Shown here: positions 35,199 through 61,600 of the stretch, one piece after another
How positions within the stretch are numbered: the stretch's first letter is position 1
Layout of the letters: each line of letters begins with the position of its first letter
Assembly: GCA_937139605.1 (NCBI GenBank)
Contig: CAKZQG010000043.1
Span: forward strand, 6,692 to 70,691
Reading direction: 5' to 3'
Length of the DNA stretch: 64,000 nucleotides
DNA from: an uncultured bacterium
Lineage (GTDB): Bacteria > DRYD01
Made by a program: the position numbers and the translations under genes
The notes under the pieces: generated by a model
The model's input: only the letters and a program-made list of their open reading frames with translations
Databases searched by the model: none
Told to the model about the DNA's origin: nothing

Positions 35199-35280
35199 AT
35201 TATAATAATTTTTTTTAAAAAGTCAAGTATTTAGTGGGGGGGGGGAATTGTAAAATGTTTGTTAAATTTATTAAATTATT
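35199..35280 (-). promoter_or_regulatory. Promoter of pilus operon 1 with C10 tract (copy A of duplicated promoter)
   Basis: On the minus strand: TTAACA-aacat-TTTACA (35265-35249), C10 (35245-35236), TTGACT (35226-35221), 16 nt, TATAAT (35204-35199). Near-identical to 60929-61009. Confidence 0.85.
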
Positions 35281-35323
35281 TTCAAAATTATTAATTAATT
35301 AAAATATTTTTGTAAAAAAATTG

Positions 35324-35722
35324 TTAAAAATAAATAATTAACAAAGAATTAGCAACTGTTAAATCCCTTTCATGTGAAATACTTACTTTAACTATAAAAT
35401 CTTTAACATCCTTACTAAAAAAATTTGATAATTTAACTAAAATATAATCTTTATTAACAAAATCTACAGAATTATTTAAAATCGAGATAGAATTAAAATT
35501 AATCTTAAAAGATAAGGCTTTAATGATAGCTTCTTTAGCAGCAAACCTACCCGCTAAAAACTCTACCCTTCTTTTATAATTAAATATCTTACTATATCTT
35601 TCAATTTCAAAAATACTTAAAACCCTTTTAATAAATCTAAAATTATAAATATTTTTTGATATTCTTTTATTATAAACAATATCTATCCCTGTATTAATAA
35701 AGAAGTGATCATTAAATAACAT
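35324..35722 (-). CDS. acpS: Holo-ACP synthase
   Basis: GIDIV, FLAGRFAAKEAIIKA, VSISHERD. Confidence 0.93.
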   Translation of the reverse strand: MLFNDHFFINTGIDIVYNKRISKNIYNFRFIKRVLSIFEIERYSKIFNYKRRVEFLAGRFAAKEAIIKALSFKINFNSISILNNSVDFVNKDYILVKLSNFFSKDVKDFIVKVSISHERDLTVANSLLIIYF

Positions 35723-35728
35723 TAATTA

Positions 35729-37354
35729 TTATTTATTTTCATCAACCCAAGTTTTTTTAAGGATTTCAGCGATTTCATTAGGATTAGATTTAGCAACCTG
35801 CTCTATTTCAGTAACTAATGTTTTAAATTCCACATTTTCTTGAGTAGCTTCAGATTTATTTCCCAACTTATCAGTAGTTAAATCCACAACAGTATTAGAA
35901 GTGACTTCTTCTTTTTGAGAGTAATTAGGAGCTATATTAATAGCCATTCTATCATAACTTAGTTTATTTTGCTTAAATAAGAAAACCCCCAATACTCCCA
36001 AAGCCCCTATAGCTGCTACAGATGCTAAAAATATAACTAAAGATTGTATAGGGAACGAATTAGATTTAACAGGAACAGCTGGAGGAGCTACTACTACAGG
36101 ATTAGAAACTTGATTAGTACTATTAGCAAAGAACGGTAAATTAACTACAGCTATACTGTCCCCTCTTTCCTCTTTTAATCCAATGGCATTTTTAATATAT
36201 TGTTGTACTTGAGCTTTAGTAGAATCAGATACATTATTTAAAGCCACTGCTACAGTTATTCTCTTTATAGAAGACCCGGGGTTTTTAACTACTTCAGTAA
36301 CTACTTGATCCACTTTTTGATTAACAATAGTTTGTTGTTGAATTTCACTAGCATTTTCTTTATTTTTATCTAAAGCTCCACCTTCATATTGTTTTGTTTT
36401 TTTAGTTTCTTGTTTAGATAAAACCTTAGAATTAGGATCATCAGGAAGCCCATATTGTTCTCGATATATCTTGATCCTATCCCAATCCAGTTCAACATCA
36501 ACATTAACAGTATAATTCCCTACCCCTAATATTTGATCTAATGATTGAGTTAATTTAGAAACATACATATTTTCTACTTTTTGCTTAATTCCAAAGGTAT
36601 CTTCCACAGGGTTAACTGCATTAGGGTTTAATATCCTTCCATTAACTACTAAAGATATATTATTAGAATCTAAACCTTCTACAGAATTAGCAACAGTTTG
36701 AATAATAGCACTCGCTTCTTCATTAGATAAGGATTTTGCGGGAAAAGTATTTAAAATAATAGACGCCTTAACAGGTTCCTTAGTTTCAGATAAGGGATCG
36801 TTCTTAGGAATAGCTAAGGAAACATTAACATTACTAATTTTATCTGGATAAAACTCCTTTATTTTAGTAGATAATGCATATTCTGTAGATTGTTTTATAT
36901 AGTTTTCCCAAGCTTCCTTAGTGGTACCTGGCGGAGGAGCTTTTAACTCAGGAGCAACATTAGGTTTTATAAACCCTTGCTTTACTACATCAGTATAAAC
37001 CCTATTATGATACTTAGGATGAATATAAACTTGCCCTAAAGCATCATCTATCCTATATTCTTTTATACCATTATTTTCTAAGTAATTTTTAACGTTAGCT
37101 AACTGAGCTTTATCCAATTTACCCCCAGGATAAAGCGGAATATACTCATTAGATTTAGAATACAAAAATATAGTAATACCAATAGCAATAATTAAGATAA
37201 TAACAACAGCAATAATAGCTTTTTGAGTATTATTGAGATTTTTTAAAGTTTCAAATAATTGATTAGGTGAAGCTGTAGGAGAAGCCGCTCCTGCTTGAGT
37301 TAATCTAGTATTAGTAGGTCGCGTTGGTCTAGTAGAACCAGGTCTAACTGTCAC
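35729..37354 (-). CDS. fliF: FliF-like (flagellar MS-ring / SctJ family) basal-body ring protein, orphan
   Basis: N-terminal TM then EYIPLY..LD...NV..YLE..GI; VNVSLAIP, SIILN, IIQTVANSVEGLDSNNISLV; LGVGNYTVNVDVELDWD; IKRITVAVALN; AIGLKEERGDSIAVVNLPF; C-terminal TM; ends NPNEIAEILKKTW. Confidence 0.8.
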   Translation of the reverse strand: MTVRPGSTRPTRPTNTRLTQAGAASPTASPNQLFETLKNLNNTQKAIIAVVIILIIAIGITIFLYSKSNEYIPLYPGGKLDKAQLANVKNYLENNGIKEYRIDDALGQVYIHPKYHNRVYTDVVKQGFIKPNVAPELKAPPPGTTKEAWENYIKQSTEYALSTKIKEFYPDKISNVNVSLAIPKNDPLSETKEPVKASIILNTFPAKSLSNEEASAIIQTVANSVEGLDSNNISLVVNGRILNPNAVNPVEDTFGIKQKVENMYVSKLTQSLDQILGVGNYTVNVDVELDWDRIKIYREQYGLPDDPNSKVLSKQETKKTKQYEGGALDKNKENASEIQQQTIVNQKVDQVVTEVVKNPGSSIKRITVAVALNNVSDSTKAQVQQYIKNAIGLKEERGDSIAVVNLPFFANSTNQVSNPVVVAPPAVPVKSNSFPIQSLVIFLASVAAIGALGVLGVFLFKQNKLSYDRMAINIAPNYSQKEEVTSNTVVDLTTDKLGNKSEATQENVEFKTLVTEIEQVAKSNPNEIAEILKKTWVDENK

Positions 37355-37435
37355 AAACTATCCCCCCTTTATATCTTTAATCCTATTATATATTTTAAAT
37401 AAAAATTAAAAAATCCCCTATAAAATATTAAAAAA

Positions 37436-37452
37436 TTAACATCTTTTTTACA
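37436..37452. promoter_or_regulatory. TTAACA-N5-TTTACA box upstream of the FliF-like gene
   Basis: Exact TTAACA-tcttt-TTTACA in the intergenic region. Confidence 0.6.
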
Positions 37453-37489
37453 AAAAATAATTTAAATTTTTAAATTATTAAATTTCAAA

Positions 37490-38686
37490 TTATTCTTGAA
37501 CAACAGCCAAATCAGTTCTTATTTTATTTTCATCAAAAACATCCGATAACCTAAAATTAAAATAATTAGAATATTTATCTAATTGATTTAGTATATATTC
37601 TTTAGCAAAAGAATCTATATTTTCTTTAATAACAACATCCAAATTATTAATTTCATTTATTAATACTGCTTTAATTCCTTTATTTTCAAAATAATCTTCT
37701 AAAACTTTTAAAGATTTATTAGTAGATACCAAAATAATAGCATAAGGCTTATAAGATGAATAATAAATATCTAAAAAGAAAACATTATGGATTTTAAAAT
37801 CTTCGTTAAGGAAAGATATAACAATCGGCTTTGATAATTCATTATATATTAAGTTTTTACAAACTTCGACTAAATCTAAATACAATTGCTCTCCCATAGT
37901 GTCTCTTAATTTTTTATAAACATATTCAGCAAAAACCATATTATCAGAAAGAATATAATTAGAAACTTCAGTTAAAGTTAAAATTTCTTCCATTCTTTCA
38001 TCTTTTATACTTTTTCCACAATGAAAACACTTAATCCCAACACTTTGATTTAAGATATCTAAATTAGCGGCTTGTATAATTTGCCTACCAGTTTCTTTAC
38101 ATATAAAAACATACTCGTTTGATAAAAAATTCTTACTTAATAGTTCATTTAAATCTTCTTGATTAACATTTAAAACTTTTATTAAATCGCTTCTAAATAA
38201 AGAAGTCCCAACTTCTTTTATCCTCTTTAAAAGCAAATAACTATTAGTATCTAAAATAGAAATATATTTAATTATATCATCATTTATGTTTAATTCAGTA
38301 ACTGGATTAAATAATTCAACTTCAGTTTTCAAAACATTAAATTCAAATTCAATGTTTTTATTAGTACAAAATTTTTCAAAAACCTTTTTATAAGCTTCAA
38401 AAATCTTTAATTCCTCAAAATCATTATATACAAATAGTAAATAAATTTTATTAGATTTAGAAAAATCTATTAAAAAAGCTGTTTTATCTTTAACAAAAAT
38501 TTCTACATCCTGTTCAAAAACTATAGTCTTTAAATCTTTAGGATCTTTTGAAAAAGAAAATAACTTATATAAATTAACTTTAGTAGAATTAATAACGGGA
38601 TTCCCTAACTTAGAGAAATAATTAATAATATCCGATTTATAATTAAATTCTTGATTTAAATTAAAAATTGCTTCTAGATATTTCAT
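37490..38686 (-). CDS. Hypothetical protein with possible zinc-ribbon segment
   Basis: 398-aa ORF abutting aspS; CKETG...CFHCG. Confidence 0.65.
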   Translation of the reverse strand: MKYLEAIFNLNQEFNYKSDIINYFSKLGNPVINSTKVNLYKLFSFSKDPKDLKTIVFEQDVEIFVKDKTAFLIDFSKSNKIYLLFVYNDFEELKIFEAYKKVFEKFCTNKNIEFEFNVLKTEVELFNPVTELNINDDIIKYISILDTNSYLLLKRIKEVGTSLFRSDLIKVLNVNQEDLNELLSKNFLSNEYVFICKETGRQIIQAANLDILNQSVGIKCFHCGKSIKDERMEEILTLTEVSNYILSDNMVFAEYVYKKLRDTMGEQLYLDLVEVCKNLIYNELSKPIVISFLNEDFKIHNVFFLDIYYSSYKPYAIILVSTNKSLKVLEDYFENKGIKAVLINEINNLDVVIKENIDSFAKEYILNQLDKYSNYFNFRLSDVFDENKIRTDLAVVQE

Positions 38687-40528
38687 TTAATTCACCTCCA
38701 TTAATTTTATTCCTAATTCTTTTAACTGGATTTCATCAACTTCAGAAGGAGCTTTAGTAAGCAAACATGTTCCACTTTGTGTTTTTGGAAACGCTATAAC
38801 CTCCCTTATACTACTATATCCTAATAATAAAGCAATAATTCTATCAATTCCTAAAGCTATTCCCCCATGGGGAGGTACCCCATATTTAAAAGCTTCTAAT
38901 AAAAATCCAAATTTTTTATTAGCTTCTTCCTCTGTTATCCCTATTATATTAAATATTATTTTTTGAAACTCAATATCAGTTATTCTTATACTTCCGCTAG
39001 CTACCTCAACCCCATTTAATACTAAATCGTAAGCTAAAGATCTAATAGATAAAACCTCTTTAACAAAATTATCATCATAAATAATTTTTGGATCTTTTTG
39101 TAATTCTTTATATATCATATAAACTTTAGGTTTATCTTCTTCTAAAACATTAGTAAAAGGATGATGTTCAGGAGAAATTTTTCTTATTATCTTATCCCCT
39201 ACCTTTTCTTCTTCTACTTTAAAAAGTGGGAAATTATCAACCCAAAGAAAATAAAAATCCTTAACAGGCCTTAATAATTTATTATCTATTAAATAATTCT
39301 TTATCAAAACTAATTCATTCAAATAATTCTTAGAAGAAATAATAAAAACAATATAATCTCCATTAGCAAAATCATTTTCTTTTCTTAAATAACTATCTAC
39401 TTCATTAACATCTACAAACTTAACTAAACTACCCTTAAATTCACCATTACTAGAAATAAAATATAAAAATTTTAAATTATTCTGTTTCAAAAATTCATTG
39501 AGTTTATCTAATTCTTTACGAGTTAATCCTAAATTTTTAAAGAATATGTAATAAGTTTGATTAATATTAAAATTCTCATCATTTAAATTTATTTTAATTG
39601 AATTATTCCATTTTTTAATAGGATAATTATACCTTAAATCAGGTTTATCAGAATTAAAATGTTCAATAGCATATTTATAATCAATAACTTCAAAAGGAGT
39701 ATTTATATCAATCCCTAAATTATTAAGAGCAAATTCTAGTAAATTTTCAACTAATAAAAAGATATCATTTTTAGAAATAAAAGACATTTCTATATCGACC
39801 TGAGTAAATTCTGGTTGTCTATCAGCCCGTAAATCTTCATCTCTTAAGCACTTAGCTATCTGGAAATACCTATCTATACCAGATACCATTAGAATTTGTT
39901 TAAAGAGTTGAGGAGATTGAGGAAGAGCATAAAATTTTCCCAGTTGAAGTCTTGAAGGTACTAAAAAATCCCGTGCTCCTTCAGGAGTAGGTTTAGCTAA
40001 CAAAGGTGTCTCTATTTCTAAGAAATCCTCATTATCCATAAAATCCCTTATATATTTTATAAGCTTATGCCTAAAGAACATATTCCTAAACATCTGTAAT
40101 CTTCTTAAATCTAAATACCTATATCTCAATCTAAGGGATTCATCTATTTTTAAATCCCTTATATCTTTATAGTCATCATTAATCATAAAAGGTAAAGGCT
40201 CACTTTTAGAAAGTATCTTAAATTCCTTAGCAATTACTTCAAAATTGCCTGTAGCTATATTAGGATTGACATTTTCAGCAGGCCGCTCTTTTACTATACC
40301 TATAACTTCTAAAACATCTTCTAAAGATAATTTTTCTATTTTTAGTTCCTTTGGTAAAACTACTTGAACAACACCTGTTCTATCCCTTAAATCAATAAAA
40401 GTAATTCCCCCCATATCTCTAAACCTATGAACCCAACCATATAATTTTACAACTTTATTAATATATTTCTCATTTATTTTACCACACCATACCCTGTCTT
40501 TATAGGTATAATCAATTTGCTTAAGCAT
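38687..40528 (-). CDS. aspS: Aspartate--tRNA ligase
   Basis: FIDLRDRTG OB fold, TPEGARDFLVPSR, ALPQSPQLFKQILM, DEDLRADRQPEFTQVD, HHPFT, PPHGGIALGIDR. Confidence 0.98.
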   Translation of the reverse strand: MLKQIDYTYKDRVWCGKINEKYINKVVKLYGWVHRFRDMGGITFIDLRDRTGVVQVVLPKELKIEKLSLEDVLEVIGIVKERPAENVNPNIATGNFEVIAKEFKILSKSEPLPFMINDDYKDIRDLKIDESLRLRYRYLDLRRLQMFRNMFFRHKLIKYIRDFMDNEDFLEIETPLLAKPTPEGARDFLVPSRLQLGKFYALPQSPQLFKQILMVSGIDRYFQIAKCLRDEDLRADRQPEFTQVDIEMSFISKNDIFLLVENLLEFALNNLGIDINTPFEVIDYKYAIEHFNSDKPDLRYNYPIKKWNNSIKINLNDENFNINQTYYIFFKNLGLTRKELDKLNEFLKQNNLKFLYFISSNGEFKGSLVKFVDVNEVDSYLRKENDFANGDYIVFIISSKNYLNELVLIKNYLIDNKLLRPVKDFYFLWVDNFPLFKVEEEKVGDKIIRKISPEHHPFTNVLEEDKPKVYMIYKELQKDPKIIYDDNFVKEVLSIRSLAYDLVLNGVEVASGSIRITDIEFQKIIFNIIGITEEEANKKFGFLLEAFKYGVPPHGGIALGIDRIIALLLGYSSIREVIAFPKTQSGTCLLTKAPSEVDEIQLKELGIKLMEVN

Positions 40529-40581
40529 ATTATCTACACTCCCCTTTTCTATTTCTTTATGTAAATACTATTTTTAATTTT

Positions 40582-41106
40582 TTAATCAAATAATTTTTTT
40601 AAATTTTGTAATAAAGTTAAGTAAGTTTGTTCTAGAGAAAAACTAATAACTCTAACATCAGAAATAGTAGTCATAAAATTATGATCCCCTATAAATCTGG
40701 GTAATATATGAAAATGAATATGTTGATCAACCCCAGCTCCCGCCGCTCTACCTACATTAGACCCTATATTATAACCATCCATATTATAGCTTATATTTAA
40801 TACTCTTTTTGATAATATTATCAAATCAAAAATTTCCCGTTTTTCTTCGTCAGTTAATAACTCAATATCACTAATATGTCTATAAGGTATAATCATTAAA
40901 TGTCCATTAATATAAGGATATTTATTTAACATAATAAAAGAATAAACAGCTTTATACAAAACCAAGTTTTCAACCGAAGGTTCTATATCTTTAATTTTTA
41001 TATCATTATAATAGCAAAATATACATTTATCAGAAGGATTATTTTTATTATAATTCATTAAATATTCTCCTCTCCAAGGAGCATATAATATTTTTAGTTC
41101 TTTCAT
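40582..41106 (-). CDS. HIT family hydrolase (Ap4A phosphorylase/Fhit-like)
   Basis: APWR, CIFC, LNKYPY..GHLMIIPYRH, NVGRAAGAG..HIHFHILPR. Confidence 0.9.
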   Translation of the reverse strand: MKELKILYAPWRGEYLMNYNKNNPSDKCIFCYYNDIKIKDIEPSVENLVLYKAVYSFIMLNKYPYINGHLMIIPYRHISDIELLTDEEKREIFDLIILSKRVLNISYNMDGYNIGSNVGRAAGAGVDQHIHFHILPRFIGDHNFMTTISDVRVISFSLEQTYLTLLQNLKKLFD

Positions 41107-41114
41107 TTTAATTT

Positions 41115-41993
41115 TTACTTATTTTGTTTATATTGAGGGGGTATAAAAATATCCTCAGGGGGTTTTTTTTCTCTTACAGAAGTATCAAATAAATCATCAG
41201 ATAATCCAACATTAACAGAAATATTTTCCAAATATAAAACCCATGCTAGCTTTTTATTATTAGGATTATCATAAGAGAAATTATAAATAAGAATTTTAGT
41301 AGGGAACGGTCTTCCATCATTTATATAACTTATACCCTTATACACTACCTCTATACCAGTTTGTTCCTTAGAAAAAGGATAGAAAATAAACTTAGCAGGC
41401 AGATAATTATTAGGATCTAAATACATTCTATATCTTTCATACATTTTAGAAGTATCAATGAAACTAATAACAACTAAATTTTTTCCTTTTTCTTGGCCTG
41501 TTCCAATTTGTTCATATCCTACAACTACAGGATATAAAATCTTTTCAACTTCAGGATACCTTAATAAGGGGAAAAATGGGAAATTAACAATTAAAGGATA
41601 TCTATTATCTTTAGATATATTAAGAGGATAAGGAGCATCATTTTTTAAAATAACAGTATATTCTCCATCTTTAATAGTAATTAGGATAACCCCTTCTAAA
41701 GATGAATGATAAACAAATTCAGTTTCTATGCGTAAATAATAAGGTTCCTTATAAAATATTTTTCCTTTACCAATTAAAGGGATATCTTCTTCTTTAGCTG
41801 CTATTTTTTTAGAATCCTTAGATACATCTTGAGCTCTAAATTCATAATCTATAACCATATCCTTTATTTTTGTATATTTTCCAATATAAACTTTTTTAAT
41901 ATAATCAAATGCAGCATTATAAGTAAAACTATTAATTTTTAATAAAAATATAAAAAAAATAAGGAAACTAAAAAGATATTTTTTATTTAACAT
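41115..41993 (-). CDS. Exported LolA-like (outer membrane lipoprotein-sorting fold) protein
   Basis: Signal peptide, GKIFYKEP..LRIET, RMYLDP.NYLP.K, ISVNVGLSDDLF. Confidence 0.55.
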   Translation of the reverse strand: MLNKKYLFSFLIFFIFLLKINSFTYNAAFDYIKKVYIGKYTKIKDMVIDYEFRAQDVSKDSKKIAAKEEDIPLIGKGKIFYKEPYYLRIETEFVYHSSLEGVILITIKDGEYTVILKNDAPYPLNISKDNRYPLIVNFPFFPLLRYPEVEKILYPVVVGYEQIGTGQEKGKNLVVISFIDTSKMYERYRMYLDPNNYLPAKFIFYPFSKEQTGIEVVYKGISYINDGRPFPTKILIYNFSYDNPNNKKLAWVLYLENISVNVGLSDDLFDTSVREKKPPEDIFIPPQYKQNK

Positions 41994-42051
41994 ATAGCCT
42001 TAAATTATAACCTCCATAATTATTTTAGTTAATATAAAAATTTCATAAAAA

Positions 42052-42759
42052 TCAAATTCTATTAATAATAAAAGAGGATACACTAAATATAGCTTGATCT
42101 ATTTCATACCAATCATATAAAGATAAGAATTCTTCATTATACTCAAAATAAGTATCTCTAGGGGTCCTAACAGCATTAGAACTCATTAAAAATTTTCCTT
42201 TAAAAAATAATTTTACTTTATAAATCCTATCAGCAACTCCTACAGGAATATACATATTCCCAACCAATTGAGAACTTTCCATTAACATATGAAGCAACTC
42301 ATTACCGTCTGTTAAATCAAAAACCTTTAAAACCAATTTATCAAAATCACTAATATTATTTACTTCCCAATAAGCAAATATCCAATAAGGATCAATAGGT
42401 AACAAATAAATATAATCTTTATTATATCTGCTAGGAAGATCTTGAATAAAATCACTTTTTAAGCTTTGCATATTAATTAGATTTGCTTGTTCAAAACTAC
42501 TTTTAAGAGTATCTTTAAAAGAATAAACAAAATCTAAATTAACTCTATTTTCATTAAACAAAATGTTATTAGTATCTAATTTTAAAAATTCTTCATTAAT
42601 ATTATTTATTTCCTGTTCTTCCATAACTTTAAACCATCTATAAATTGTACTCTTTGAGATTTTATATTCTTCAGATATTCTTTTTATACTCCAATTATCT
42701 ACTTTGAATCTATACCATAATATTTTAGCTAATTCTGGTAAATCTTTTTTCTTTCGCAT
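42052..42759 (-). CDS. DUF4912-domain protein with N-terminal HTH
   Basis: WSIKRISEEYKISKSTIYRW HTH; LPSRY...LLPIDPYWIFAYWEV; SSNAVRTPRD. Confidence 0.7.
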   Translation of the reverse strand: MRKKKDLPELAKILWYRFKVDNWSIKRISEEYKISKSTIYRWFKVMEEQEINNINEEFLKLDTNNILFNENRVNLDFVYSFKDTLKSSFEQANLINMQSLKSDFIQDLPSRYNKDYIYLLPIDPYWIFAYWEVNNISDFDKLVLKVFDLTDGNELLHMLMESSQLVGNMYIPVGVADRIYKVKLFFKGKFLMSSNAVRTPRDTYFEYNEEFLSLYDWYEIDQAIFSVSSFIINRI

Positions 42760-42786
42760 ACAAATACCCTCCCATAAATAACTATA

Positions 42787-45700
42787 TTAATTCAACATAT
42801 TATTAATAGAATTTAATTTAGCTTTAACAATCCCTATCATTAATCCTTCTTTTCCATAAATAACAATAATATTATTTTTAAAACTCCAACTAAAAATTAT
42901 TCCATTTTCTAACTCTTCATAATAATTATTTATGTCTTTTATAAATTCATATAATTCAGATAAATAACTTATATTTTTATCTTTAAAGACACTATCATTA
43001 CTAAAATAATCCCCAAAATTACTATCTTTAATAACAGCTACTCCATCAATCTTAGGATTATTAATAATATTAAAAATATCCATAGATACTTTATCTAATT
43101 CTTGATTTTTATTCAATTTAATTTCACTTTCTTTAATAGGACTTTCTTTAATAGGAATTAAATCAAGATTTAATTCCTGTTTTAAAAATTGATCTACTTC
43201 AGATTTTATTTCTTTACTTAATTCTAAATCATTTTGTTTAATATCTTCTTTTAACTCAACTCCTTCTTTAAATTCAACTGATTCAATATTTATGTCTTCC
43301 ATACTACTAATTTCTGTATTAGCAATTCCATCTAAATCATTGCTACCTATACTATCTAAATTAATATCATCTAAATTAATATTATCTAAATTAATATTAT
43401 CCAAATTAAGATCATCTAAATTAATATTATCTAAATCTAAAGAATCTATATCTAAATTGAGATTTATATCTACATCAACTTTTTGAGCTTCTTCAAAAAA
43501 TATCTCTTCATCTATATCTATTTTTAATATATCTTTATCTTTTTGTTCAAAAATTTTCTCATCATAAAAAATCTCTTTTTTAATTTCTTCTTTTGTATCT
43601 GGCAATCCTATTTTTCTTATTTCTTCTACTTTTCCAATTTCATTTAGTTCCTTATCTAGTATTTCTTTATTAAATATATCAACTCCATTCATTTTTTGTT
43701 CTTCTTTATTATCAGATAAAAATTGTTTTTGTGATTCTTCCTCGTTTAATATTAACTCTTTTTGTAAATTAATAGCAGCTGGATTAGCATCAGCTACTTG
43801 TGAAAAATCTATTGAATCTATTGAATCTATTGAATCTATTGAAATGCTTCCTAAATTTTCAATCTGTTCTATTTCCTGATTAATTGTTTTTTCAGCATTT
43901 ACTTGCTCAATTTCTTCGGTTATTTCATATTGCTTATTATCAATAATATTTTCTAAATCAAAAGTTGTTTCTATATTGCTAATATCAATATTAGCTAAAT
44001 CATTTCCAAGTAAATTAGATAATTCTAATTCATTTATTTTTTTCACTTCATCCTTATAAGTATTATCAAATTTTTTTATACTATCTTCTTCAAAAATATT
44101 AACTAAATTGCTATCCTTATTAAAACCACTTTTATCTAATTCTTTACTATATTCATTATCAACAAAAGAAATATTTTCCTCAATTATTTTTTGGCTATTA
44201 TCTTCATCCTTAAAAACAATTTCTTCTTTTATTATCTCATCTTTAATTATTTCTTTTTGACTAATATCGTTATAATTACTATCAAGTCCAATATCATTAG
44301 CTTGATCTTTAAAATCATATGTAGCTGTTTCCTCTTTAATAAATAATTCTTGTTTTATATCAAAATTTAAATTAATCTCTTCTATATTTAAGCTAATGTC
44401 TTTTAAATTAACGTTTTCTATTTTTTGTATTACATCTTCTTCCTTTTCCAATTCATTTATTATACTAAAATCTATATCTAAATTAAATTTATTTTTTTGA
44501 TTATTATCAATTATTTCTAGTTTTTGTTGTTCATTAATATCTTTAAATTCTTGGAATTTCTCAATTTGTTCTAATTTCTCAATCATTTCTACTTTCCCAA
44601 TTTGTTCAGACTCACCAACTTGTTCTAACTTCTTAGTATGCTCTGAATTCTCAATTTGCCCTAATATTTGGTTAATTTCTTCAATTTTCCTTAATTTTTC
44701 AGTTTGACTTAATTCCCCTACTTGCTCTAACTCTTCAATTTGCTTCACTTCTTGCTTTTCCTTCTCTATTTGTTCTATTTTATCTGTTTGATCTAAACTT
44801 TCAATCTGTTTTAAGTTTTCTATTTGTTCTATTTTCTCAGCTTGTTCTACTTTCTCTTCTTGTTCTAAACTTTCAATCTCTTTTAAGTTTTCTATTTGTT
44901 CTATTTTCTCTTCTTGTTCTATTTTCTCTTCTTGTTCTAAACTTTCAATCTCTTTTAAGTTTTCCATTTGTTCTATTTTCTCAGCTTGTTCTACTTTCTC
45001 TTTTTGTTCTAAACTTTCAATCTGTTTTAAGTTTTCCATTTGTTCTATTTTCTCAGCTTGTTCTACTTTCTCTTCTTGTTCTAAACTTTCAATCTCTTTT
45101 ATTTTCTCAACTTGTTCCATACCTTCAATTTGTTCTATTTTCTCTGTTTGTATTAAGCTTTCAATTTGCTCTAAAGGCTGTTCTATCTTTTTAATTTGTT
45201 CCAGCTTCTCAATTTGGTCTATCTTTTCAACTTTTTCTAAGTCTTGAATTTGTTTTAAATTTTCAGGTTGTTCTAATTTTTCATGCGATTCTTTTAGTTG
45301 ATCCTTTTCAGTTTCAATTACTTGAGATAATTCAGAAGCTTCCTGTTTTACTTCAATATGCAACTTAGTAAATTCATCTCTTAACTTTTGTAGAAAAACA
45401 TTAAAATTAAGCAATTCATCATAAATAAAATTAATAACAATATAATTATTAAGTATGCCTAAATTATTATCATTAAAAATTATTTGCTTAAAATAAGGGT
45501 CTAAGGAAGCAAAAATCTTTTCATATATCCTTTTTACTTTATTAATTTTCTTAGGCTCTTCAGAATAATATTTTTTTTCTTTAAAAGAATTAATTATATC
45601 CATTGGATTATCAATAACTAATTCAATTTCATTTCTTTTCTTTTCGTCTTCAAAAGGAATTATTTCATTAATATTAGATATTAACTTTGCTTTTAGTTCA

Positions 45701-46062
45701 GTTTTTATTTTAACTAATTGCTCCAAATTTTGATTTACATTTTCAATAATAATATTAATCTCATTTAAATTTAAAGTTTGTAATAAAGCAATATCTTGAG
45801 ATTCTAGATTATCAAAAAACGAATCTTTTTTAGCAGCATATTTTTTATAAAACTCCAAAATATTTAAAAACTTTGTTAAATTATTATTAAATAACTCCAA
45901 TTGAGTTTGATTAAATATACTATAAGAAATTTCTTTAATAAAATTAACAAATTCAGAATCTATAAAATAATTAAATAAAATATTAACTGAAAAAAGTTTA
46001 GGTAATTCTAGGATTTCTTGATTATAAAAAATATCATTATTAAAATTAAGGATATTAATCAC
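42787..46062 (-). CDS. Large, highly acidic, repeat-containing hypothetical protein
   Basis: 1091 aa, E/D/I/Q-rich; 24-aa tandem repeats, (LDNIN)n repeats, small globular C-terminal domain. Confidence 0.8.
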   Translation of the reverse strand: MINILNFNNDIFYNQEILELPKLFSVNILFNYFIDSEFVNFIKEISYSIFNQTQLELFNNNLTKFLNILEFYKKYAAKKDSFFDNLESQDIALLQTLNLNEINIIIENVNQNLEQLVKIKTELKAKLISNINEIIPFEDEKKRNEIELVIDNPMDIINSFKEKKYYSEEPKKINKVKRIYEKIFASLDPYFKQIIFNDNNLGILNNYIVINFIYDELLNFNVFLQKLRDEFTKLHIEVKQEASELSQVIETEKDQLKESHEKLEQPENLKQIQDLEKVEKIDQIEKLEQIKKIEQPLEQIESLIQTEKIEQIEGMEQVEKIKEIESLEQEEKVEQAEKIEQMENLKQIESLEQKEKVEQAEKIEQMENLKEIESLEQEEKIEQEEKIEQIENLKEIESLEQEEKVEQAEKIEQIENLKQIESLDQTDKIEQIEKEKQEVKQIEELEQVGELSQTEKLRKIEEINQILGQIENSEHTKKLEQVGESEQIGKVEMIEKLEQIEKFQEFKDINEQQKLEIIDNNQKNKFNLDIDFSIINELEKEEDVIQKIENVNLKDISLNIEEINLNFDIKQELFIKEETATYDFKDQANDIGLDSNYNDISQKEIIKDEIIKEEIVFKDEDNSQKIIEENISFVDNEYSKELDKSGFNKDSNLVNIFEEDSIKKFDNTYKDEVKKINELELSNLLGNDLANIDISNIETTFDLENIIDNKQYEITEEIEQVNAEKTINQEIEQIENLGSISIDSIDSIDSIDFSQVADANPAAINLQKELILNEEESQKQFLSDNKEEQKMNGVDIFNKEILDKELNEIGKVEEIRKIGLPDTKEEIKKEIFYDEKIFEQKDKDILKIDIDEEIFFEEAQKVDVDINLNLDIDSLDLDNINLDDLNLDNINLDNINLDDINLDSIGSNDLDGIANTEISSMEDINIESVEFKEGVELKEDIKQNDLELSKEIKSEVDQFLKQELNLDLIPIKESPIKESEIKLNKNQELDKVSMDIFNIINNPKIDGVAVIKDSNFGDYFSNDSVFKDKNISYLSELYEFIKDINNYYEELENGIIFSWSFKNNIIVIYGKEGLMIGIVKAKLNSINNMLN
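43354..43435 (-). repeat. 15-nt tandem repeats encoding LD(N/D)(I/L)N pentapeptides
   Basis: Repeated atctaaattaatatt-like units on the plus strand. Confidence 0.75.
44770..45110 (-). repeat. 72-nt intragenic tandem repeat, about 5 units
   Basis: Anchor (t/a)tctaaactttcaatct recurs at 44791, 44863, 44935, 45007, 45079; unit KEIESLEQEEKVEQAEKIEQMENL. Confidence 0.88.
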
Positions 46063-46143
46063 AACTATCCCCTTTTATAATTTTATAAAGTTTTTTAGTT
46101 TATCCTTCTTATTTTAATTAGATTTTCTTTATTAAATAAAAAA

Positions 46144-49773: not shown

Positions 49774-49858
49774 GCGGGTGTGGCGGAACTGGCAGACGCG
49801 CTATCTTGAGGGGGTAGTGCCCTCTAAGGGCGTGTGGGTTCAAGTCCCACCACCCGCA
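49774..49858 (+). tRNA. tRNA-Leu (anticodon GAG)
   Basis: GCGGGTG/CACCCGC acceptor stem, CTATC-TTGAGGG-GGTAG anticodon arm, long variable arm, GTTCAAGTCC T-loop; CCA not encoded. Confidence 0.96.
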
Positions 49859-49869
49859 TTAACATCATT

Positions 49870-51153: not shown

Positions 51154-51205
51154 CTCTAAACTAATAATGATAAATCATTATTAACATAACTCAATATTCT
51201 TATAA

Positions 51206-52390: not shown

Positions 52391-52450
52391 AATAAAAAAA
52401 CAAAAAAACTAATTAAAATAAAAAAATCAAAAAAATAAGGAGTGTTTATT

Positions 52451-54376: not shown

Positions 54377-54401
54377 AACAAAATATCAAAAATCAAAAAT
54401 T

Positions 54402-55127
54402 ATGATAAATCAAAACCAAAACCAAGAACAAAACTTAAATCAAGAAATAAAAAAAACAGAAAAAATATTACTAAAAGGAGTAAGTAAATATTATAGAACA
54501 GAAGGAGAAAAAGTTTTAGCTTTAAATAATATTAATTTATGCATATATGAGGGTGATTTTATAGGTATAATGGGGCCAAGTGGTGCAGGGAAAAGTACTT
54601 TATTATTAATTATAGCTACTATAGAGCGTCCATCCTTTGGGGAATTATACATTGATTCAATTCCTACAAGTGATATGCTAGATAGTGATTTACAATTAAT
54701 AAGATTAAATAAAATAGGGATGGTATTTCAAGATTATTATCTTATTTCATCGCTTAGTGCTTTAGAAAATGTATTACTTCCTTTAGAAATAAGTAATAAA
54801 TTTAATAATCCAGTAAAAAGAGCAAAAGAATTATTAAAAATGGTAGGCATAAAAGAAAACAGATTTAATGATAATATTAATAAGTTTTCAGGGGGAGAAA
54901 AGCAAAGGATTTCAATAGCAAGAGCTCTAACAAATGATCCAGATATAATTATAGCAGATGAACCTACCGCAAATTTAGATACCAAAAACTCTAAAATAAT
55001 AATGGATATATTTACTAATATTAATCAACATCTAAAAAAAACTATAATAATAGCTACTCACGACCCTAAAGTTCTAGCTTTTACAGAAAAAATATATTTC
55101 ATTAATGATGGGAAAATATCTACTTAA
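54402..55127 (+). CDS. ABC transporter ATP-binding protein (LolD/MacB-type), no adjacent permease
   Basis: GPSGAGKS, IGMVFQ, SGGEKQRISIARAL, ADEPTANLD, ATHD. Confidence 0.92.
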   Translation: MINQNQNQEQNLNQEIKKTEKILLKGVSKYYRTEGEKVLALNNINLCIYEGDFIGIMGPSGAGKSTLLLIIATIERPSFGELYIDSIPTSDMLDSDLQLIRLNKIGMVFQDYYLISSLSALENVLLPLEISNKFNNPVKRAKELLKMVGIKENRFNDNINKFSGGEKQRISIARALTNDPDIIIADEPTANLDTKNSKIIMDIFTNINQHLKKTIIIATHDPKVLAFTEKIYFINDGKIST

Positions 55128-55154
55128 TCAAATATGATTAATAAATAATTACTA

Positions 55155-56674
55155 ATGAGTAAAATTTTAAAAGAATTTCAAATTGATAATGAAATTAAAG
55201 AAATAATATTTTCTACAATTAATGATTATTTTATGTTATCGTATAAAGATAAGGTATTATTAATGTGTTCTGGAGGTCCAGATAGTACTTTTTTATTGTT
55301 TTTTTTTACCTATTTTTAAAAAGTAAGTATGATTTAAAAATTGGGGTCTTTCACTTAGATCATTTAATCAGATCTGATTCATATAAAGAACTAGATTTAT
55401 TACTAAAATATACCAAAGAATTTAATATAGAATTTTTTTCTATAAAAGAAGACGTAATAAAATATTCAAAAGATAACAAATTAAATTTAGAAGAAGCAGG
55501 GAGAATATTAAGATACTCATCAGCTTTAAAAATAGCTAAAAAACATAACTATAACAAATTAGTTACTGCTCATAATCTTAATGATTTAATATCTTCTTTT
55601 TTTATTAATTTTATTAAATCTAATCATTATTTAAATTTATTTAATTTAAATCCAATTTTTGATTTAAATAATATAGTAATTATAAGGCCGTTATTATTTA
55701 TTCCAAAGCAAGAAATACAAAAAACTTTAGATATTAATAAAATAAACTATATTTTAGATAAAACCAATACAAACCCTAAATACCTTAGGAATTTCATAAA
55801 TATGAATTTTACTAATAACTTTATTAACGCAATGCTATCAAAAACAAGTATCTTAAAAAACTACTATTTTTTTAAAAATGTTTTTAATTTCATTAAAAAT
55901 TATAAAGATGCAATTATAAATATAGCTAAAACAAAGTACATTTTAGATATACTATTTATAAAACTAAACGATAAGTATGATAACTTCTTAATTACTGAAT
56001 CCATTTTTTTTAATTTAAAAAAATTCTTTAGTGAAGTTTATAGTAATTTCAAAACCATAAATATAAACTATGAAAATATAAAACTATTAGTAGAAAATAA
56101 AGTTTATAAAATAAATATTATAAAAGATTGGTTTTTATTAAATGATATACAAAATAAAAATACAAAATTTATATTATTTAAGGCAAAGTTTAAATTCTAT
56201 TTTAAAATAGATTTATCAGAAATTAATAAAACCAAAAAAGAAATTCAAATTGAAATAAGTAATTTAATAATAAAGATAAAATCAGTTGAAAAAATTTATA
56301 ATTTAGAAAGCTTTTTAAAAGAAAACATAGAAAACTTAAAAGAAAAATCTAAAGATATAAATTATGCTTTTGGATTTTGTTTTGATAAAATAATTATAAG
56401 GAACTGGAAGGAAGGAGATTATTTTAAGCCATATGGACTTAATGGGAAAAAACAAAAATTAAAAAAATTTTTTATAAATAATAAATTTAAGGAGTATGAA
56501 AAAAGTCGGACATTAATTTTCGAAGATCAAACCGGCATCTTTCTATTATTTAATTATATTAATAAAATAAAAAGAGGGAGAGAATTATTTAATAATTTAG
56601 AATTTTTAAAATTTTTTAAAGAAAATAATGGAGTTAATTTTATAGAAATCTGGGTATATGAAAAAGAACAATAA
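55155..56674 (+). CDS. tilS: tRNA(Ile)-lysidine synthetase, interrupted by a -1 frameshift in a T9 tract
   Basis: First frame from ATG 55155 carries SGGPDS then stops at TAA 55317. The second frame from 55307 gives HLDH, LEEAGRILRY, TAHNLND, IRPLL, DKTN..KYLRN and a TilS_C-like IRNWKEGD. One extra T in 55299-55307 joins the two frames. Confidence 0.88.
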
Positions 56675-57413
56675 AAAATTAAATATAAAAGAAATCATAA
56701 TAGACATAGGGTTAGATGAAGTAGGTAGAGGCTCATTATTTGGCCCCTTAGTTATAGCTTCATTTATGATAATTAAAATTGATAATAAAAATCCTTATCA
56801 AAAAATTGAACTAAAAGATAGTAAAAAACTAACTTATAATCAAAGATTAGATTTATTTAAAAAAATAATAAATATAATAAAAAATAATAAAGATATTTCT
56901 AAAATCTATTTTTGCTTCATTTCAAATGATATCATAGATAAAATCAATATACTAAATGCAAATTTACTAGGGTTTGAAAAATTAATTATTCAAAATTTAA
57001 AAAATATTTTAAATAATAAAGTAATTGTCAAAAATATAAATAAGGTAAAACATATTAATTTTTATATAGATGGAGATAAAAAACCTAAGGATATAGAAAA
57101 TAAAATTCAAGAATTTTTAAAAACTTATCATAGTTTTGAAATGCTAAAAAATAAAATAAATATATTAAATTATATTAAGGGAGATAGTAATATAAAGGTT
57201 ATCCAGGCAGCAGCGATTTTAGCCAAAGTAACAAGAGATAAATACATACAATATTTATCTAAAAAATATCCAATTTATGATTCCCGCTATAATTTATATA
57301 ATAACAAGGGCTACTATGAAGAAGCTCATATTAAAGGTATAAAAAATTATGGTTTAACAATTTACCACCGGAAATCCTTCTTAAAAAAATATCTTCAACA
57401 AACCCTTTTTTAA
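56658..57413 (+). CDS. rnhB: Ribonuclease HII
   Basis: GLDEVGRGSLFGPLV, KDSKKL, IDG, KGD...IQAAAILAKVTRD, NKGY, HRKSF. Confidence 0.93.
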   Translation: MKKNNKKLNIKEIIIDIGLDEVGRGSLFGPLVIASFMIIKIDNKNPYQKIELKDSKKLTYNQRLDLFKKIINIIKNNKDISKIYFCFISNDIIDKINILNANLLGFEKLIIQNLKNILNNKVIVKNINKVKHINFYIDGDKKPKDIENKIQEFLKTYHSFEMLKNKINILNYIKGDSNIKVIQAAAILAKVTRDKYIQYLSKKYPIYDSRYNLYNNKGYYEEAHIKGIKNYGLTIYHRKSFLKKYLQQTLF

Positions 57414-57463
57414 GTAATATGATTCTTCGGAATTATACAATGCTAGTTAAGTTAGCAGAAGTA

Positions 57464-58507
57464 TTAAGCAATAGTAGGATTTACAGAAGTTTTTTCAAAT
57501 AACTTCATAACAGGAATAATAGCTATATTAGCAAATAATTTAGTAAGTCCAATATCCTTTAATTTATTAGCAATAAAGTCCCAGGCTCCAATTAAGCCTA
57601 AGATTCCTCCTACTATAGTTCCGACAGCTGCACCTACTGGTCCCCCTATAGCTGTTCCAATAGCAGCTAAAGCAACAGTTCCACCTATATCTAACACTTT
57701 TCTTATAATCAAATCAGCCAAATCAACTCCTTTTTCTTGTATAGGTTTATTGCTTATCAATATGTCCACAACTTGCTTAATAGATAATATAGCATCTAGA
57801 GCTTTTCCAATAATACCTGCTACCTTAGCAAATGGTCTTAATTTAGTCATAATTTTTTTAGTCATATCTGAAAGCATCTGAGTTACTTTATTATTTAATA
57901 TCTTTTTTATTGCTGGGAATTTTTTAGCCAATTCTTTTGATAACTCTGCCATTTTGGTTCCTACTTTCCCAAGTTTTTTAATTTTTTTAAATACCCTACT
58001 CACTTGTTGACAACCATCTAAAAGTCCTCTTATAGAATTAGCTAAATCTGGAAACGCTTGTTTTAACGTAATTACTCCATTTACTACATCTTCCAAATCT
58101 GTTGTTTTTTGTAATAATTCCATTGTTTTGTTTAAAGTAGTAGCTTGCTCAATAGAAGATACTTTATTACTTGCTGCTTCTAATATCTGAATTATTTGGT
58201 TCTTAATCTCTTCTGCTTTAGATTTTAATTGATTTTCATCTACCTCATTTGCATTTTGGTTACTCTCTAGTCTATTTGCTAAATCCAAAATATCTTCTTT
58301 ATTTTCCAGTTTATTTGTTTCTATTGAAGATAATGCGCTTTCATAATTAGAAACTAAACTTCCTTGTTTTCTCAAGCCTTCTTTTAAATCCGCTCTATAA
58401 GAAACATTATCTTTTTTATTTGTTTTATTTTTATTCCTGTTTATATTTTGATTATTATCAATAATAGCATAATCAGAAATACTTGGTCTAAAATCTATAC
58501 TATCTAT
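57464..58507 (-). CDS. Hypothetical protein with amphipathic helices and a C-terminal Gly-rich hydrophobic hairpin (pore-former/translocator-like)
   Basis: Frame open from 58507 (ATA, just after SD GGGGGGAGG) through the ORF-track segment 57464-58375; GGTVALAAIGTAIGGPVGAAVGTIVGGILGLIG near the C-terminus. The start is uncertain. Confidence 0.7.
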   Translation of the reverse strand: MDSIDFRPSISDYAIIDNNQNINRNKNKTNKKDNVSYRADLKEGLRKQGSLVSNYESALSSIETNKLENKEDILDLANRLESNQNANEVDENQLKSKAEEIKNQIIQILEAASNKVSSIEQATTLNKTMELLQKTTDLEDVVNGVITLKQAFPDLANSIRGLLDGCQQVSRVFKKIKKLGKVGTKMAELSKELAKKFPAIKKILNNKVTQMLSDMTKKIMTKLRPFAKVAGIIGKALDAILSIKQVVDILISNKPIQEKGVDLADLIIRKVLDIGGTVALAAIGTAIGGPVGAAVGTIVGGILGLIGAWDFIANKLKDIGLTKLFANIAIIPVMKLFEKTSVNPTIA

Positions 58508-58581
58508 TCATCCTCCCCCCAACATTTTACTATTAATAATATATTTCATTTTTTATTTTTTAAACCTAAATTAAAAAAAAA

Positions 58582-58598
58582 TTAACAAAAATTTTACA
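58582..58598. promoter_or_regulatory. TTAACA-N5-TTTACA box upstream of the pore-former-like gene
   Basis: Exact TTAACA-aaaat-TTTACA, with a third in-phase TTAAAA at 58571. Confidence 0.6.
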
Positions 58599-58901
58599 AA
58601 ATTAAATAACTCTATAACATCTAAAGCAAATCCTTTTCTGAAGTAAAAAATATTATTTATTCAAAATAGAAATAAAAAATATTAGAAAAATCTGAATTAT
58701 TTTACTTATAGAATAGTCAGCTTAAGCATTGAAATTTGGAAGCTTGATATAGCAAACAACAGTTCGTTTTTACTACATCCACATCTTTAAAAGCTGCTTT
58801 AAAAGCTTGATTTCCTCCTGTTTTATTCTCTACTGATACCTAACAAGCCCTATTTCATAATATTCAATTTCCATTTCATATATACTTCTTGCTAGTGTTT
58901 G

Positions 58902-59507
58902 TTAAAAATCGCTTGATACTTTTAGAATAATAAAGCTTTTACCACCAGGTAGTGGAGTTCCACTATATCTCATCAAACTCAACTTATTATTCTCCATAAA
59001 ATATTCTAAAATATTATTTACTACAACTAATTTGACTTTTAATAAAGAAGCAATAACAAAACTATCTGTATTTCCTTCTTTTATTAACTTCTTTAAATTG
59101 TTTAAAAATTCCTCAAAATTTTCAATATAAACTTTATAATAATTAAACAATAATAAAGGTTTAACAATAATGGAAGAAAATATTTCTTCACTTAGCCATT
59201 TTATATCAATTAATTCTGCATTACTTTTAGATAAATCTTTTAAAATATTAACAATATTATCTTTATTAGGAATTATATTTTGATAATTATCTTTATTATT
59301 TTCATAAAAACTGATTAATTTTCTAACATTTAGGGTTCTATAGATATTATCATTAATATAAATGAATTCACAAAGTAGTTTTATAACAGCAGATTTTTCT
59401 TCATTAAAATCCATAATTTTATAAAATTCATTTAATTTGGGTTTAATAAGTATTTCTTTAACTTTTTGATGGAACATTCTATGTTTTTGTAAAGTAGAGT
59501 TTTCCAT
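58902..59507 (-). CDS. Hypothetical protein
   Basis: 201-aa ORF with SD-like AGGGGCGTAGG; no confident family. Confidence 0.6.
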   Translation of the reverse strand: MENSTLQKHRMFHQKVKEILIKPKLNEFYKIMDFNEEKSAVIKLLCEFIYINDNIYRTLNVRKLISFYENNKDNYQNIIPNKDNIVNILKDLSKSNAELIDIKWLSEEIFSSIIVKPLLLFNYYKVYIENFEEFLNNLKKLIKEGNTDSFVIASLLKVKLVVVNNILEYFMENNKLSLMRYSGTPLPGGKSFIILKVSSDF

Positions 59508-59587
59508 AATTCCTACGCCCCTTTTTATATGTACATTATGTATCTATAAATTACCCTTAATTATTAAGTATTATCTTCTTAATAATT

Positions 59588-60727
59588 TTAAGATTCTTCA
59601 ATAAGTTCGATATTAGCACGTGGATATATTATTTCTTCATTAGTATCTAATATTTTAATTTTAGCTATTCTTACTTTAGATTCTGTAGGTATTTTAGTAG
59701 GTTCTTCAGGGAGATCTATTATTTGAGCGATTTTTCCAAAATATGGTTCTCTTATAATTCTTACTAAAGCTCCTTTTTCCAAGACAGTAGAAAATTGCTT
59801 ATCTTCTATTTTTGTAAGATCTTCTATTTCATTAAGAAATGGGATAATGATTTCGGGTCTTATAACTCCAGCACGTATTTGAGTAGCTCCAGAGATAGAT
59901 GCTTTTTTATTATTTGATTCTTTAAGTAAATTAAAAGTTTTATATGCCATTGAGATCTTCCCAAATCCTTCAGTAACTATTAAAGTAAATGGGATATTTT
60001 CGGTACCAGTAACAGCAACCCCTATCTCATATCCTAAAATTTCTTTAATAGTTTCTGCATCTATACCACCTGTTATTATACCTAACACTCCTAATTCAAT
60101 CAATTTATCTATAATTTCTTTTGTAATATAGCTACCACCAACAACAATATCACCTTTTTCTACATTTTCCAAAAATTTTTCATTATTTATTTCATCTTGT
60201 GGGTTATTAGCAATAACTTTAATTTTTCCGATTTTTTCTTTACCTATTCCAAAAATCCCTTGAATATAAGTACCGTAGGTCTTAATGATAGCTCCGACTT
60301 TTGGGATAACCTCTTCAACTATTCCGTCTACAAAAGCAATTGTTTCTATTGGAGTTGGATCTTTTCTTATTATTATTTGCCCTGTAGAAGTAGAAATAGA
60401 TTCAATAGTACCTGTGATAGTTGATTTTATTTCTTGTTTAAATAATCCGAAAAAAGAGGAATATTTAACAATAGTTTCTCCTTCTAATACTCTATCTCCT
60501 TCTTTTTTTAATAAAAATAGTGGTAGTTCTTGGGGATCAATTGCTAACTTATTAGCTGCATTGATAATATCGACAGGTCCCGGTAAAAATGCCTTAGCAA
60601 TAGCATCTTCTGCATTAACTTTATCATTAACATTAACAATAACATTACCTTCAATAGGTAATTTTCGTTCTTTTTTAATAACTGTTCTTTTTAGGACTTT
60701 AAGGCCTGGTACGTATGCGTGAGCCAT
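59588..60727 (-). CDS. Conserved hypothetical protein with barrel-sandwich-hybrid-like segments and a C-terminal KOW-like motif
   Basis: MAHAYVPGLKV start, ERKLP..G.V.V, S.ITGTIE.I, IQGIFGIG, VTEGFG, GATQIRAGVIRPE, KGALVRIIREPYFG. Confidence 0.75.
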   Translation of the reverse strand: MAHAYVPGLKVLKRTVIKKERKLPIEGNVIVNVNDKVNAEDAIAKAFLPGPVDIINAANKLAIDPQELPLFLLKKEGDRVLEGETIVKYSSFFGLFKQEIKSTITGTIESISTSTGQIIIRKDPTPIETIAFVDGIVEEVIPKVGAIIKTYGTYIQGIFGIGKEKIGKIKVIANNPQDEINNEKFLENVEKGDIVVGGSYITKEIIDKLIELGVLGIITGGIDAETIKEILGYEIGVAVTGTENIPFTLIVTEGFGKISMAYKTFNLLKESNNKKASISGATQIRAGVIRPEIIIPFLNEIEDLTKIEDKQFSTVLEKGALVRIIREPYFGKIAQIIDLPEEPTKIPTESKVRIAKIKILDTNEEIIYPRANIELIEES

Positions 60728-60742
60728 AAAGAAGATAAGGGA

Positions 60743-60815
60743 TGACCCTGACGGGATTCGAACCCGTGTCTCCGGCTTGAAGGGCCGGTGTCCTAGTCCA
60801 CTAGACGACAGGGCC
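60743..60815 (-). tRNA. tRNA-Glu (anticodon TTC)
   Basis: GGCCCTG/CAGGGTC acceptor stem, CCGGC-CCTTCAA-GCCGG anticodon arm, GGTTCGAATCC T-loop; CCA not encoded. Confidence 0.96.
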
Positions 60816-60928
60816 TTTTATTTCCTTTATATTTATATTCTTCTACTTTTTTAAAAAAACTCCTCCTTTTTATCAACTAAACTAAAAAATACCATAACAA
60901 ATATCAAAAAACAATTAACAATATTAAT

Positions 60929-61009
60929 AATAATTTAATAAATTTAACAAACATTTTACAATTCCCCCCCCCACTAAACACTTGACTTTTTAAAAAAAAT
61001 TATTATAAT
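60929..61009 (+). promoter_or_regulatory. Promoter of pilus operon 2 with C9 tract (copy B of duplicated promoter)
   Basis: TTAACA-aacat-TTTACA (60944-60960), C9 (60964-60972), TTGACT (60982-60987), 16 nt, TATAAT (61004-61009). Confidence 0.85.
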
Positions 61010-61568: not shown

Positions 61569-61600
61569 TTAAAAAAATAAAAACCAAGGAGGAAAATTTA

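Follow-up and report, generated by a model that had tools for sequence, protein, structure and literature searches.

Results

Two operons for prepilin-like proteins follow copies of one predicted promoter module

The stretch of DNA analyzed here (the window) comprises 64,000 nucleotides (nt) of contig CAKZQG010000043.1, positions 6,692 to 70,691 of the forward strand, in assembly GCA_937139605.1 of an uncultured bacterium. This assembly (G000) contains 1.88 Mb in 45 contigs, has a G+C content of 24% and is 88.5% complete. The window carries two operons, A and B, for prepilin-like proteins, and upstream of each lies a copy of the same predicted promoter module, in which a poly-C tract separates a repeated hexamer (the box) from a sigma-70-like core promoter. 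Operon A (30167-35150, minus strand) encodes an FG-GAP protein of 751 amino acids (aa; 32895-35150) and four prepilin-like proteins (32485-32892, 31894-32448, 30749-31846 and 30167-30691) that have N_methyl/TIGR02532 motifs and N-termini fitting G-F/A-(S/T)-L-x-E. Operon B (61074-64000, plus strand) has three genes, the last of which passes the window end by about 285 nt; they encode a PilV/GspI-like prepilin of 164 aa (61074-61568), a 209-aa protein (61601-62230) and a 673-aa protein (62263 onward) with a weak PilX_N match (E 0.024, under the cut-off). FG-GAP Pfam matches in the 751-aa protein were above the cut-off, as was the PF07963/TIGR02532 match in the 184-aa protein, and those in the 135-aa, 164-aa and 365-aa proteins fell just under it. 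A Pfam scan of the 751-aa and 673-aa proteins did not find a PilY1/PilC domain (PF05567), and a PDB sequence search with the FG-GAP protein returned no relative. The context of these proteins suggests a possible role at the pilus tip.

Copy A of the module (35199-35280, minus strand) and copy B (60929-61009, plus strand) are 98% identical across 80-81 nt. They lie 25.6 kb apart in inverted orientation, and hence one promoter element is common to two unlinked pilus loci. Both copies read, in order, ATAATTTAATAAATTTAACAAACATTTTACAATT, poly-C, ACTAAA(T/C)ACTTGACT, 16 nt and TATAAT, that is, a TTAACA-N5-TTTACA box, the poly-C tract, ACTAAA(T/C)AC, TTGACT, a 16-nt spacer and TATAAT. The box, TTAACAAACATTTTACA, consists of direct hexamers at an 11-nt period and occupies 35249-35265 (minus strand) in copy A and 60944-60960 (plus strand) in copy B. 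The tract begins 3 nt downstream of the box and ends 9 nt upstream of TTGACT; it is C10 in copy A (35236-35245, minus strand; G10 on the plus strand) and C9 in copy B (60964-60972, plus strand). This extra C and one T/C substitution are the differences between the copies. The predicted core promoters, at 35199-35226 on the minus strand (TTGACT 35226-35221, TATAAT 35204-35199) and at 60982-61009 on the plus strand, match the consensus at 11 of 12 positions, and in neither region does any other sigma-70-like match score higher than TTGACT-16-TATAAT. On the 3' side, identity between the copies stops at the final base of TATAAT, beyond which the leaders and genes bear no relation to each other; on the 5' side it is gradually lost at about 15-35 nt from the box. 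A second box, TTAACAATTTTTTTACA, lies farther upstream of copy A, outside the common module (35311-35327, minus strand; C43:42002-42018).

Most of this had been proposed in an earlier, sequence-only reading of the window, which described the two stretches as the same sequence apart from one substitution and a tract of C10 in one and C9 in the other, gave the layout from box to TATAAT, listed the gene content of the two operons and regarded the promoter as their shared part. Comparison of the two stretches and a reading of both copies bore out the single module of about 80 nt and its layout, and the gene content is as first described; the proteins of A and B have the N-terminal prepilin motif alone in common. 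The search of the whole genome for further copies of the promoter, suggested in the same reading, was run on the window's assembly: BLAST with an 80-mer found these two places alone (E 3e-36 and 7e-33) and no third copy in the 1.88 Mb. The module was unmatched outside the window's genome in an exact-pattern scan of GTDB species genomes. Rfam gave two tRNAs only across the window, with no known RNA element in the module or the leaders.

Both tracts vary in length among assemblies of the species

Independent public assemblies of the same species were fetched through exact-protein look-ups of flanking genes and one metagenome pattern scan. Tract A, read in 18 assemblies, was C8 in five, C9 in five and C10 in eight. 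Tract B, read in 15 assemblies, was C6 in two, C8 in four, C9 in eight and C10 in one. The sequence-only reading would have failed on tracts of invariant length; both tracts vary. On contigs that carry both modules, the (A,B) states were (10,9) in three cases, (9,9) in two and (8,8) in one, showing that the two tracts are not tied together but vary independently on the same contig.

The alignments around each tract allowed length changes to be compared with substitutions. In copy A, one haplotype defined by four single-nucleotide polymorphisms (SNPs) included tracts of C8, C8, C10 and C10, another flanking haplotype included C8, C8 and C9, and a further one C9 and C10. Such mixed lengths inside identical haplotypes require at least three to four independent length changes at one site, compared with about four shared SNP sites in the whole 1.87-kb alignment. 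In the copy B alignment (12 sequences, 3.5 kb) the only indels were those of the tract and a single inserted A in a Logan contig; most sequences were 0-2 SNPs apart, and the two C6 sequences formed a separate SNP lineage. A/T runs of 7-9 nt were invariant in the same alignments, except in the Logan contig and at two runs in the copy A alignment; for one of these two, substitutions in a divergent strain account for the difference. These comparisons indicate that both poly-C tracts are genuine mutational hot spots.

Two further possibilities were discarded. One was an inversion of the 25.6 kb that the two oppositely oriented copies enclose, rejected because the flanks were alike in every assembly read, except for one probably chimeric contig. 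A break at the tract in Logan contigs (L074/L080) might have indicated heterogeneity, but the A/B repeat, being longer than k=31, accounts for it. The sole C10 in copy B came from a contig that looks chimeric (L053, Ga0101945_1003857); when its positions 2584-2775 are compared with window positions 60908-60932, tuf-rpsJ and a truncated rplC are joined directly to the 5' edge of module B. Either a chimeric contig or a rearrangement would explain this junction, and the tuf-rpsJ-rplC part is missing from the window's metagenome-assembled genome.

The C-run occupies the place of a box conserved in relatives

We examined the position of the box relative to the core promoter in related organisms. 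Counted from the first base of the -35 hexamer, six promoters of the sister genus, which precede both A-like and B-like operons, have TTAACA/TTTACA hexamers beginning at -16 and -27, and further hexamers follow upstream at a period of about 11 nt. The window species is without the -16 hexamer; three bases, the C-run and ACTAAA(C/T)AC stand in its position. The starts of the remaining hexamers depend on the tract: -27 and -38 with C9, which is the canonical register and the state of copy B in the window; -28 and -39 with C10, as in copy A; and -26 and -37 with C8. The gap between box and -35 had been given earlier as 21 or 22 nt, which is correct, and the 21-nt gap (C9) matches the sister-genus register exactly. 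A congener, G001, is without the C-run and has TTTAATCTCTCTTAAAATAC (CTCTCT) at that place, with its hexamers at -26 and -37. Given the -16 hexamer of the sister genus and the tract-free congener, the comparison indicates that the C-run is a recent derivative of a pyrimidine-rich spacer, which had earlier taken the place of the proximal box.

Copies A and B were homogenized after the C-run arose. In two divergent strains (L076 and L079), copy A carries B-like flanking bases farther upstream, which points to gene conversion between the copies. Other variants of the copy A promoter in L076, L079 and L084 were a 7-nt ACTTGAC duplication, a TTGATT -35 hexamer, which occurs with the B-like upstream flank, and a TTTACA to TTTAAA change in the box. 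In the tract-free congener (G001:C48:574-2803; L044/L049), the FG-GAP gene lies in two frames with an internal stop and may be a pseudogene.

The box is a family-wide motif

The pattern TTWACA-N5-TTWACA occurs 65 times in the genome, compared with 4-23 copies at other spacings and about 7 expected from the hexamer count. For further analysis, one repeat-rich element and three spacers of clustered regularly interspaced short palindromic repeats (CRISPR) were excluded, leaving 50 copies. All but one of these are intergenic, and none lies between convergent genes; they are found 50-140 nt ahead of start codons, in either orientation and without a -10 element at a fixed distance. Besides the modules, the window has sites at 17598-17614, 18219-18235, 37436-37452 and 58582-58598, as well as the second box upstream of copy A (35311-35327). 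The box is enriched in all ten family genomes (24-72 copies each), and fifteen other genomes have 0-8 copies. Its distribution thus marks the box as a real cis element, and a transcription factor that binds in tandem probably recognizes its hexamers. The sequence-only reading had placed an activator site upstream of the tract. A box does lie there, 21 or 22 nt from the -35, but it is not specific to the pilus operons: it belongs to a family-wide set of about 50 intergenic sites per genome.

The excluded element is a repeat-rich region of 1.3 kb with 13 box copies (C26:50600-51900). The three spacers that carry the box belong to arrays at C22:1-520 and C16:~12380; a mobile element or phage sharing the motif may be a CRISPR target.

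PhoP/WalR-type boxes of the OmpR family are direct TT(A/T/C)ACA hexamers with spacers of about 5 nt, written on the other strand as TGTWAH-N5-TGTWAH. We take TTAACA-N5-TTTACA (reverse complement TGTAAA-N5-TGTTAA) to fit this consensus and its 11-nt period. Direct hexamer repeats at a 10-11 nt period upstream of genes, as expected of an OmpR/PhoB-type array, are indeed present, yet the sites described here differ from PhoP/WalR-type boxes in occurring in both orientations and about 50 times per genome. The spacing would also suit a sigma-54 -24/-12 element, but the assembly has no Sigma54_DBD gene, and both this possibility and a box acting as the -35 of its own promoter were rejected in view of the two orientations and the missing fixed-distance -10. 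A single Trans_reg_C (OmpR-family) regulator was found in the assembly, which at 88.5% completeness may have missed others; its gene (C24:8825-9526) is adjacent to a kinase gene. The best NCBIfam scores of the product are YycF, RpaB, MtrA and PhoB, all under the equivalog cut-offs; within the family its sequence identity is 82-95%. We hypothesize that this protein is the regulator that binds the box.

Long G/C runs exceed the number expected from composition and vary at another locus too

A run of 9-10 G/C nucleotides had been called improbable by chance in this AT-rich DNA. In the whole genome there are 38 runs of at least 7 nt, compared with about 1.2 expected from composition. The longest is a G12, followed by a G10 and four 9-nt runs, with tracts A and B among them. 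The G12 (C8:21469-21480, outside the window) lies in the leader, or 5' untranslated region, of a gene for an HD-GYP (c-di-GMP phosphodiesterase-like) protein, behind a reversed TTAACA box and TTGACA-N18-TATAAT. In other assemblies (loci L085-L091) this tract was G9, G9, G10, G10, G11 and G16, which argues that long G/C runs are generally unstable in the species; the window's genome has a 19-nt insert after the tract. Loss of mismatch repair was rejected as the cause of the instability, because MutS_I and MutL domains were found in the window's genome and in most or all family genomes. Since MutS1 and MutL are present, instability is a local property here, as it is in Neisseria or Bordetella.

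Some ten runs of G7-G8 are found 1-12 nt upstream of start codons (for example C17:7468, C39:1410, C39:70360, C34:12349 and C43:1084). These might function as poly-G ribosome-binding sites, and their length may vary as well.

A third paralogous operon adjoins a pilus motor-type gene

A third operon (C45:1-3218) is 35-40% identical to operon B, gene for gene. The immediate neighbors of operons A and B include no pilus machinery genes, and it is only the third operon that adjoins, in other assemblies, a T2SSE-family ATPase gene. In those assemblies its promoter is without both module and poly-C and carries just a degenerate box, TTTACA-N5-TTAATA. In the window's assembly the operon begins at a contig edge (C45; compare the end of C25); a repeat-induced break at a third copy of the module was considered and rejected, as the promoter read in other assemblies is module-free. 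Since this third paralogous set adjoins the ATPase gene, operon B looks like an alternative copy of a core minor-pilin set. Operon A looks like an additional adhesin set.

Discussion

A poly-C tract that may set the spacing between regulator and core promoter

The sequence-only reading interpreted the tract as setting the distance between an activator site and the -35, and this interpretation is supported as far as sequence data reach. We consider it probable, with moderate confidence, that the two accessory pilus operons are driven by a promoter with a slippery tract, changes in whose length shift the spacing between box and core and thereby alter expression. According to this model, the pilus-accessory promoters of the family would carry a TTAACA/TTTACA array of 11-nt period locked in register with sigma-70-type -35 and -10 elements, and in the window species the promoter-proximal hexamer would have been exchanged for a poly-C run. 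The run would gain and lose C's through slipped-strand mispairing, far faster than the flanks accumulate substitutions. Each step of 1 bp would rotate the remaining boxes, and hence the bound factor, by about 34 degrees relative to the core promoter and RNA polymerase. As the canonical register, C9 would allow full activity, and other lengths would lower or abolish activation. With the two tracts changing independently, cells within one population could then differ in which pilus accessory or tip sets they combine. The promoter is best read as a spacing switch or rheostat, and by analogy it is probably a stochastic expression switch like that of the Bordetella fimbriae.

Several observations weigh against the spacing model. 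With 11 of 12 consensus matches, the core promoter may fire without an activator, in which case spacing would matter little. The commonest length of copy A is C10 and not the canonical C9. Some of the assemblies counted as independent may derive from shared samples or reads. MutS1 and MutL being present, there is no general mismatch-repair defect. The tip role of the FG-GAP and 673-aa proteins, finally, is putative, being suggested by their context and by weak profile matches.

The near-consensus core and the prevalence of C10 in copy A are also the reasons why a neutral explanation keeps some probability. The promoter would then be constitutive, the tract would be hypermutable without regulatory consequence, and the duplication would be due to a promoter that was copied or homogenized by gene conversion. 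Instability of long G/C runs is also seen elsewhere in the genome, and the B-like flanks of copy A in L076 and L079 are what conversion between the copies would leave behind. We nevertheless regard neutrality as rather unlikely. Apart from one divergent lineage, tract lengths deviate by no more than one step from the canonical 21-nt gap; the C-run occupies the exact former site of a conserved box, between conserved boxes and the -35; a run of 9-10 C's has been kept at both promoters despite a G+C content of 24%; and in the known analogue a single C suffices for switching (PMC10172299). The tract might instead act by something other than spacing, with length tuning promoter strength gradually: as a G/C block in the UP zone that weakens contact with the C-terminal domain of the RNA polymerase alpha subunit, as a thermal "clamp" against melting, or as a site for a poly(C)/poly(G)-binding protein. 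It does sit in the UP-element zone (about -45 to -54) in otherwise A/T-rich DNA, the organism appears to be from hot springs, which would suit the clamp, and data on Bordetella fimX favor graded over threshold effects (PMC1891110). That relatives conserve the -16/-27 register and that C9 restores -27 exactly argues for phasing instead, and no candidate poly(C)-binding factor was identified; an action of this kind seems improbable to us.

That the length differences are errors of sequencing or assembly is the least credible of the explanations, and we consider it highly improbable. Homopolymers are error-prone, and the sole C10 of copy B comes from the chimeric-looking L053 contig, whose sequencing technology is unspecified. 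On the other hand, three to four alleles recur in many MEGAHIT and SPAdes assemblies from different projects; the contig names (k141 and NODE, respectively) presumably denote Illumina assemblies, which makes consensus homopolymer errors of 1-3 nt unlikely. Differences of 2-3 nt occur (C8 versus C10, C6 versus C9), C6 follows its distinct SNP lineage in two assemblies, and the neighboring A8 and A9 runs are constant in the copy B alignment.

Relation to known phase-variable promoters and pilus clusters

The spacing-switch model is not new in kind. In Bordetella, the fim2, fim3 and fimX promoters share a "fim box" and a "C-stretch" and depend on the BvgA response regulator, and an indel of one C switches expression (PMC1891110; PMC10172299); the latter paper cites Willems 1990 and Chen 2010. 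As in the fim system of B. pertussis and B. bronchiseptica, several unlinked pilus or fimbrial loci stand here under one conserved poly-C promoter element, with the poly-C between an upstream box (there, sites for a global response regulator) and the core promoter, and the loci vary independently, with lengths that differ among isolates or strains. The Bordetella genes encode chaperone-usher major subunits, whereas those described here form type IV pilus minor-pilin/adhesin operons, and the tract is shorter, C6-C10 compared with C7-C22 across Bordetella species (PMC1891110). Our organism, moreover, appears to be a free-living hot-spring bacterium. A further difference concerns location: the tract described here lies upstream of an intact -35, while the Bordetella C-stretch reportedly occupies the -35 zone.

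Repeats in or next to promoters that alter the spacing of elements, so that surface proteins are expressed stochastically in ON, intermediate or OFF states, are also found at opc, porA and nadA of Neisseria meningitidis and at hifA/hifB of Haemophilus influenzae. The porA and hif tracts lie between -35 and -10; here, in contrast, that spacer is a constant 16 nt, with the tract upstream of the -35. Alternative minor-pilin/PilY1 clusters exist in Pseudomonas aeruginosa (fimU-pilVWXY1E) and in Myxococcus xanthus, which has three. The operons resemble these clusters in that several paralogous sets combine small prepilins with a large non-pilin or PilX-like protein and one set lies beside pilus motor genes, and differ in that an FG-GAP propeller (A) or the 673-aa protein (B) stands in for PilY1/PilC. 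The known clusters are controlled by two-component systems and not by tract slippage.

To our knowledge, nearly all documented cases of phase variation through simple sequence repeats come from host-adapted pathogens, in which it is interpreted as evasion of immunity or phages. Here, a shared promoter cassette with a slippery C-run is found in a deep-branching uncultured thermophile, and its length variation is visible across hot-spring metagenomes. If tract length sets expression, bet-hedging over surface attachment would be used in geothermal mats as well, and the module would be a rare case of a contingency locus with a traceable origin, since relatives keep a regulator box or a CTCTCT stretch at that place. 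For uncultured organisms, a census of tract lengths over public assemblies can replace isolate collections. A wider scenario is possible, and we put it forward only tentatively: a free-living hot-spring bacterium, probably of the Calescibacterota, would possess a small set of contingency loci resembling those of host-adapted pathogens, in which the replacement of a response-regulator box by slippery poly-C made two signal-controlled promoters stochastic, the third tract in the leader of the c-di-GMP phosphodiesterase-like gene adds variation to this circuit of surface behavior, and the outcome is mixed attachment and motility within streamers or mats.

Other features of the window

Two repeats in coding regions of the window were also recorded. 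An open reading frame of 1091 aa (42787-46062, minus strand) contains long tandem repeat arrays with units of 18 nt and 15 nt, at 44690-45246 and 43349-43453, respectively, which suggests a repetitive surface-type protein. An 85-nt direct repeat with 98% identity, whose copies (21526-21610 and 21661-21745) are 135 nt apart, lies within a coding region and encodes a duplicated Cys-rich motif (CPMHP...CPICGM) that looks like a metal-binding domain.

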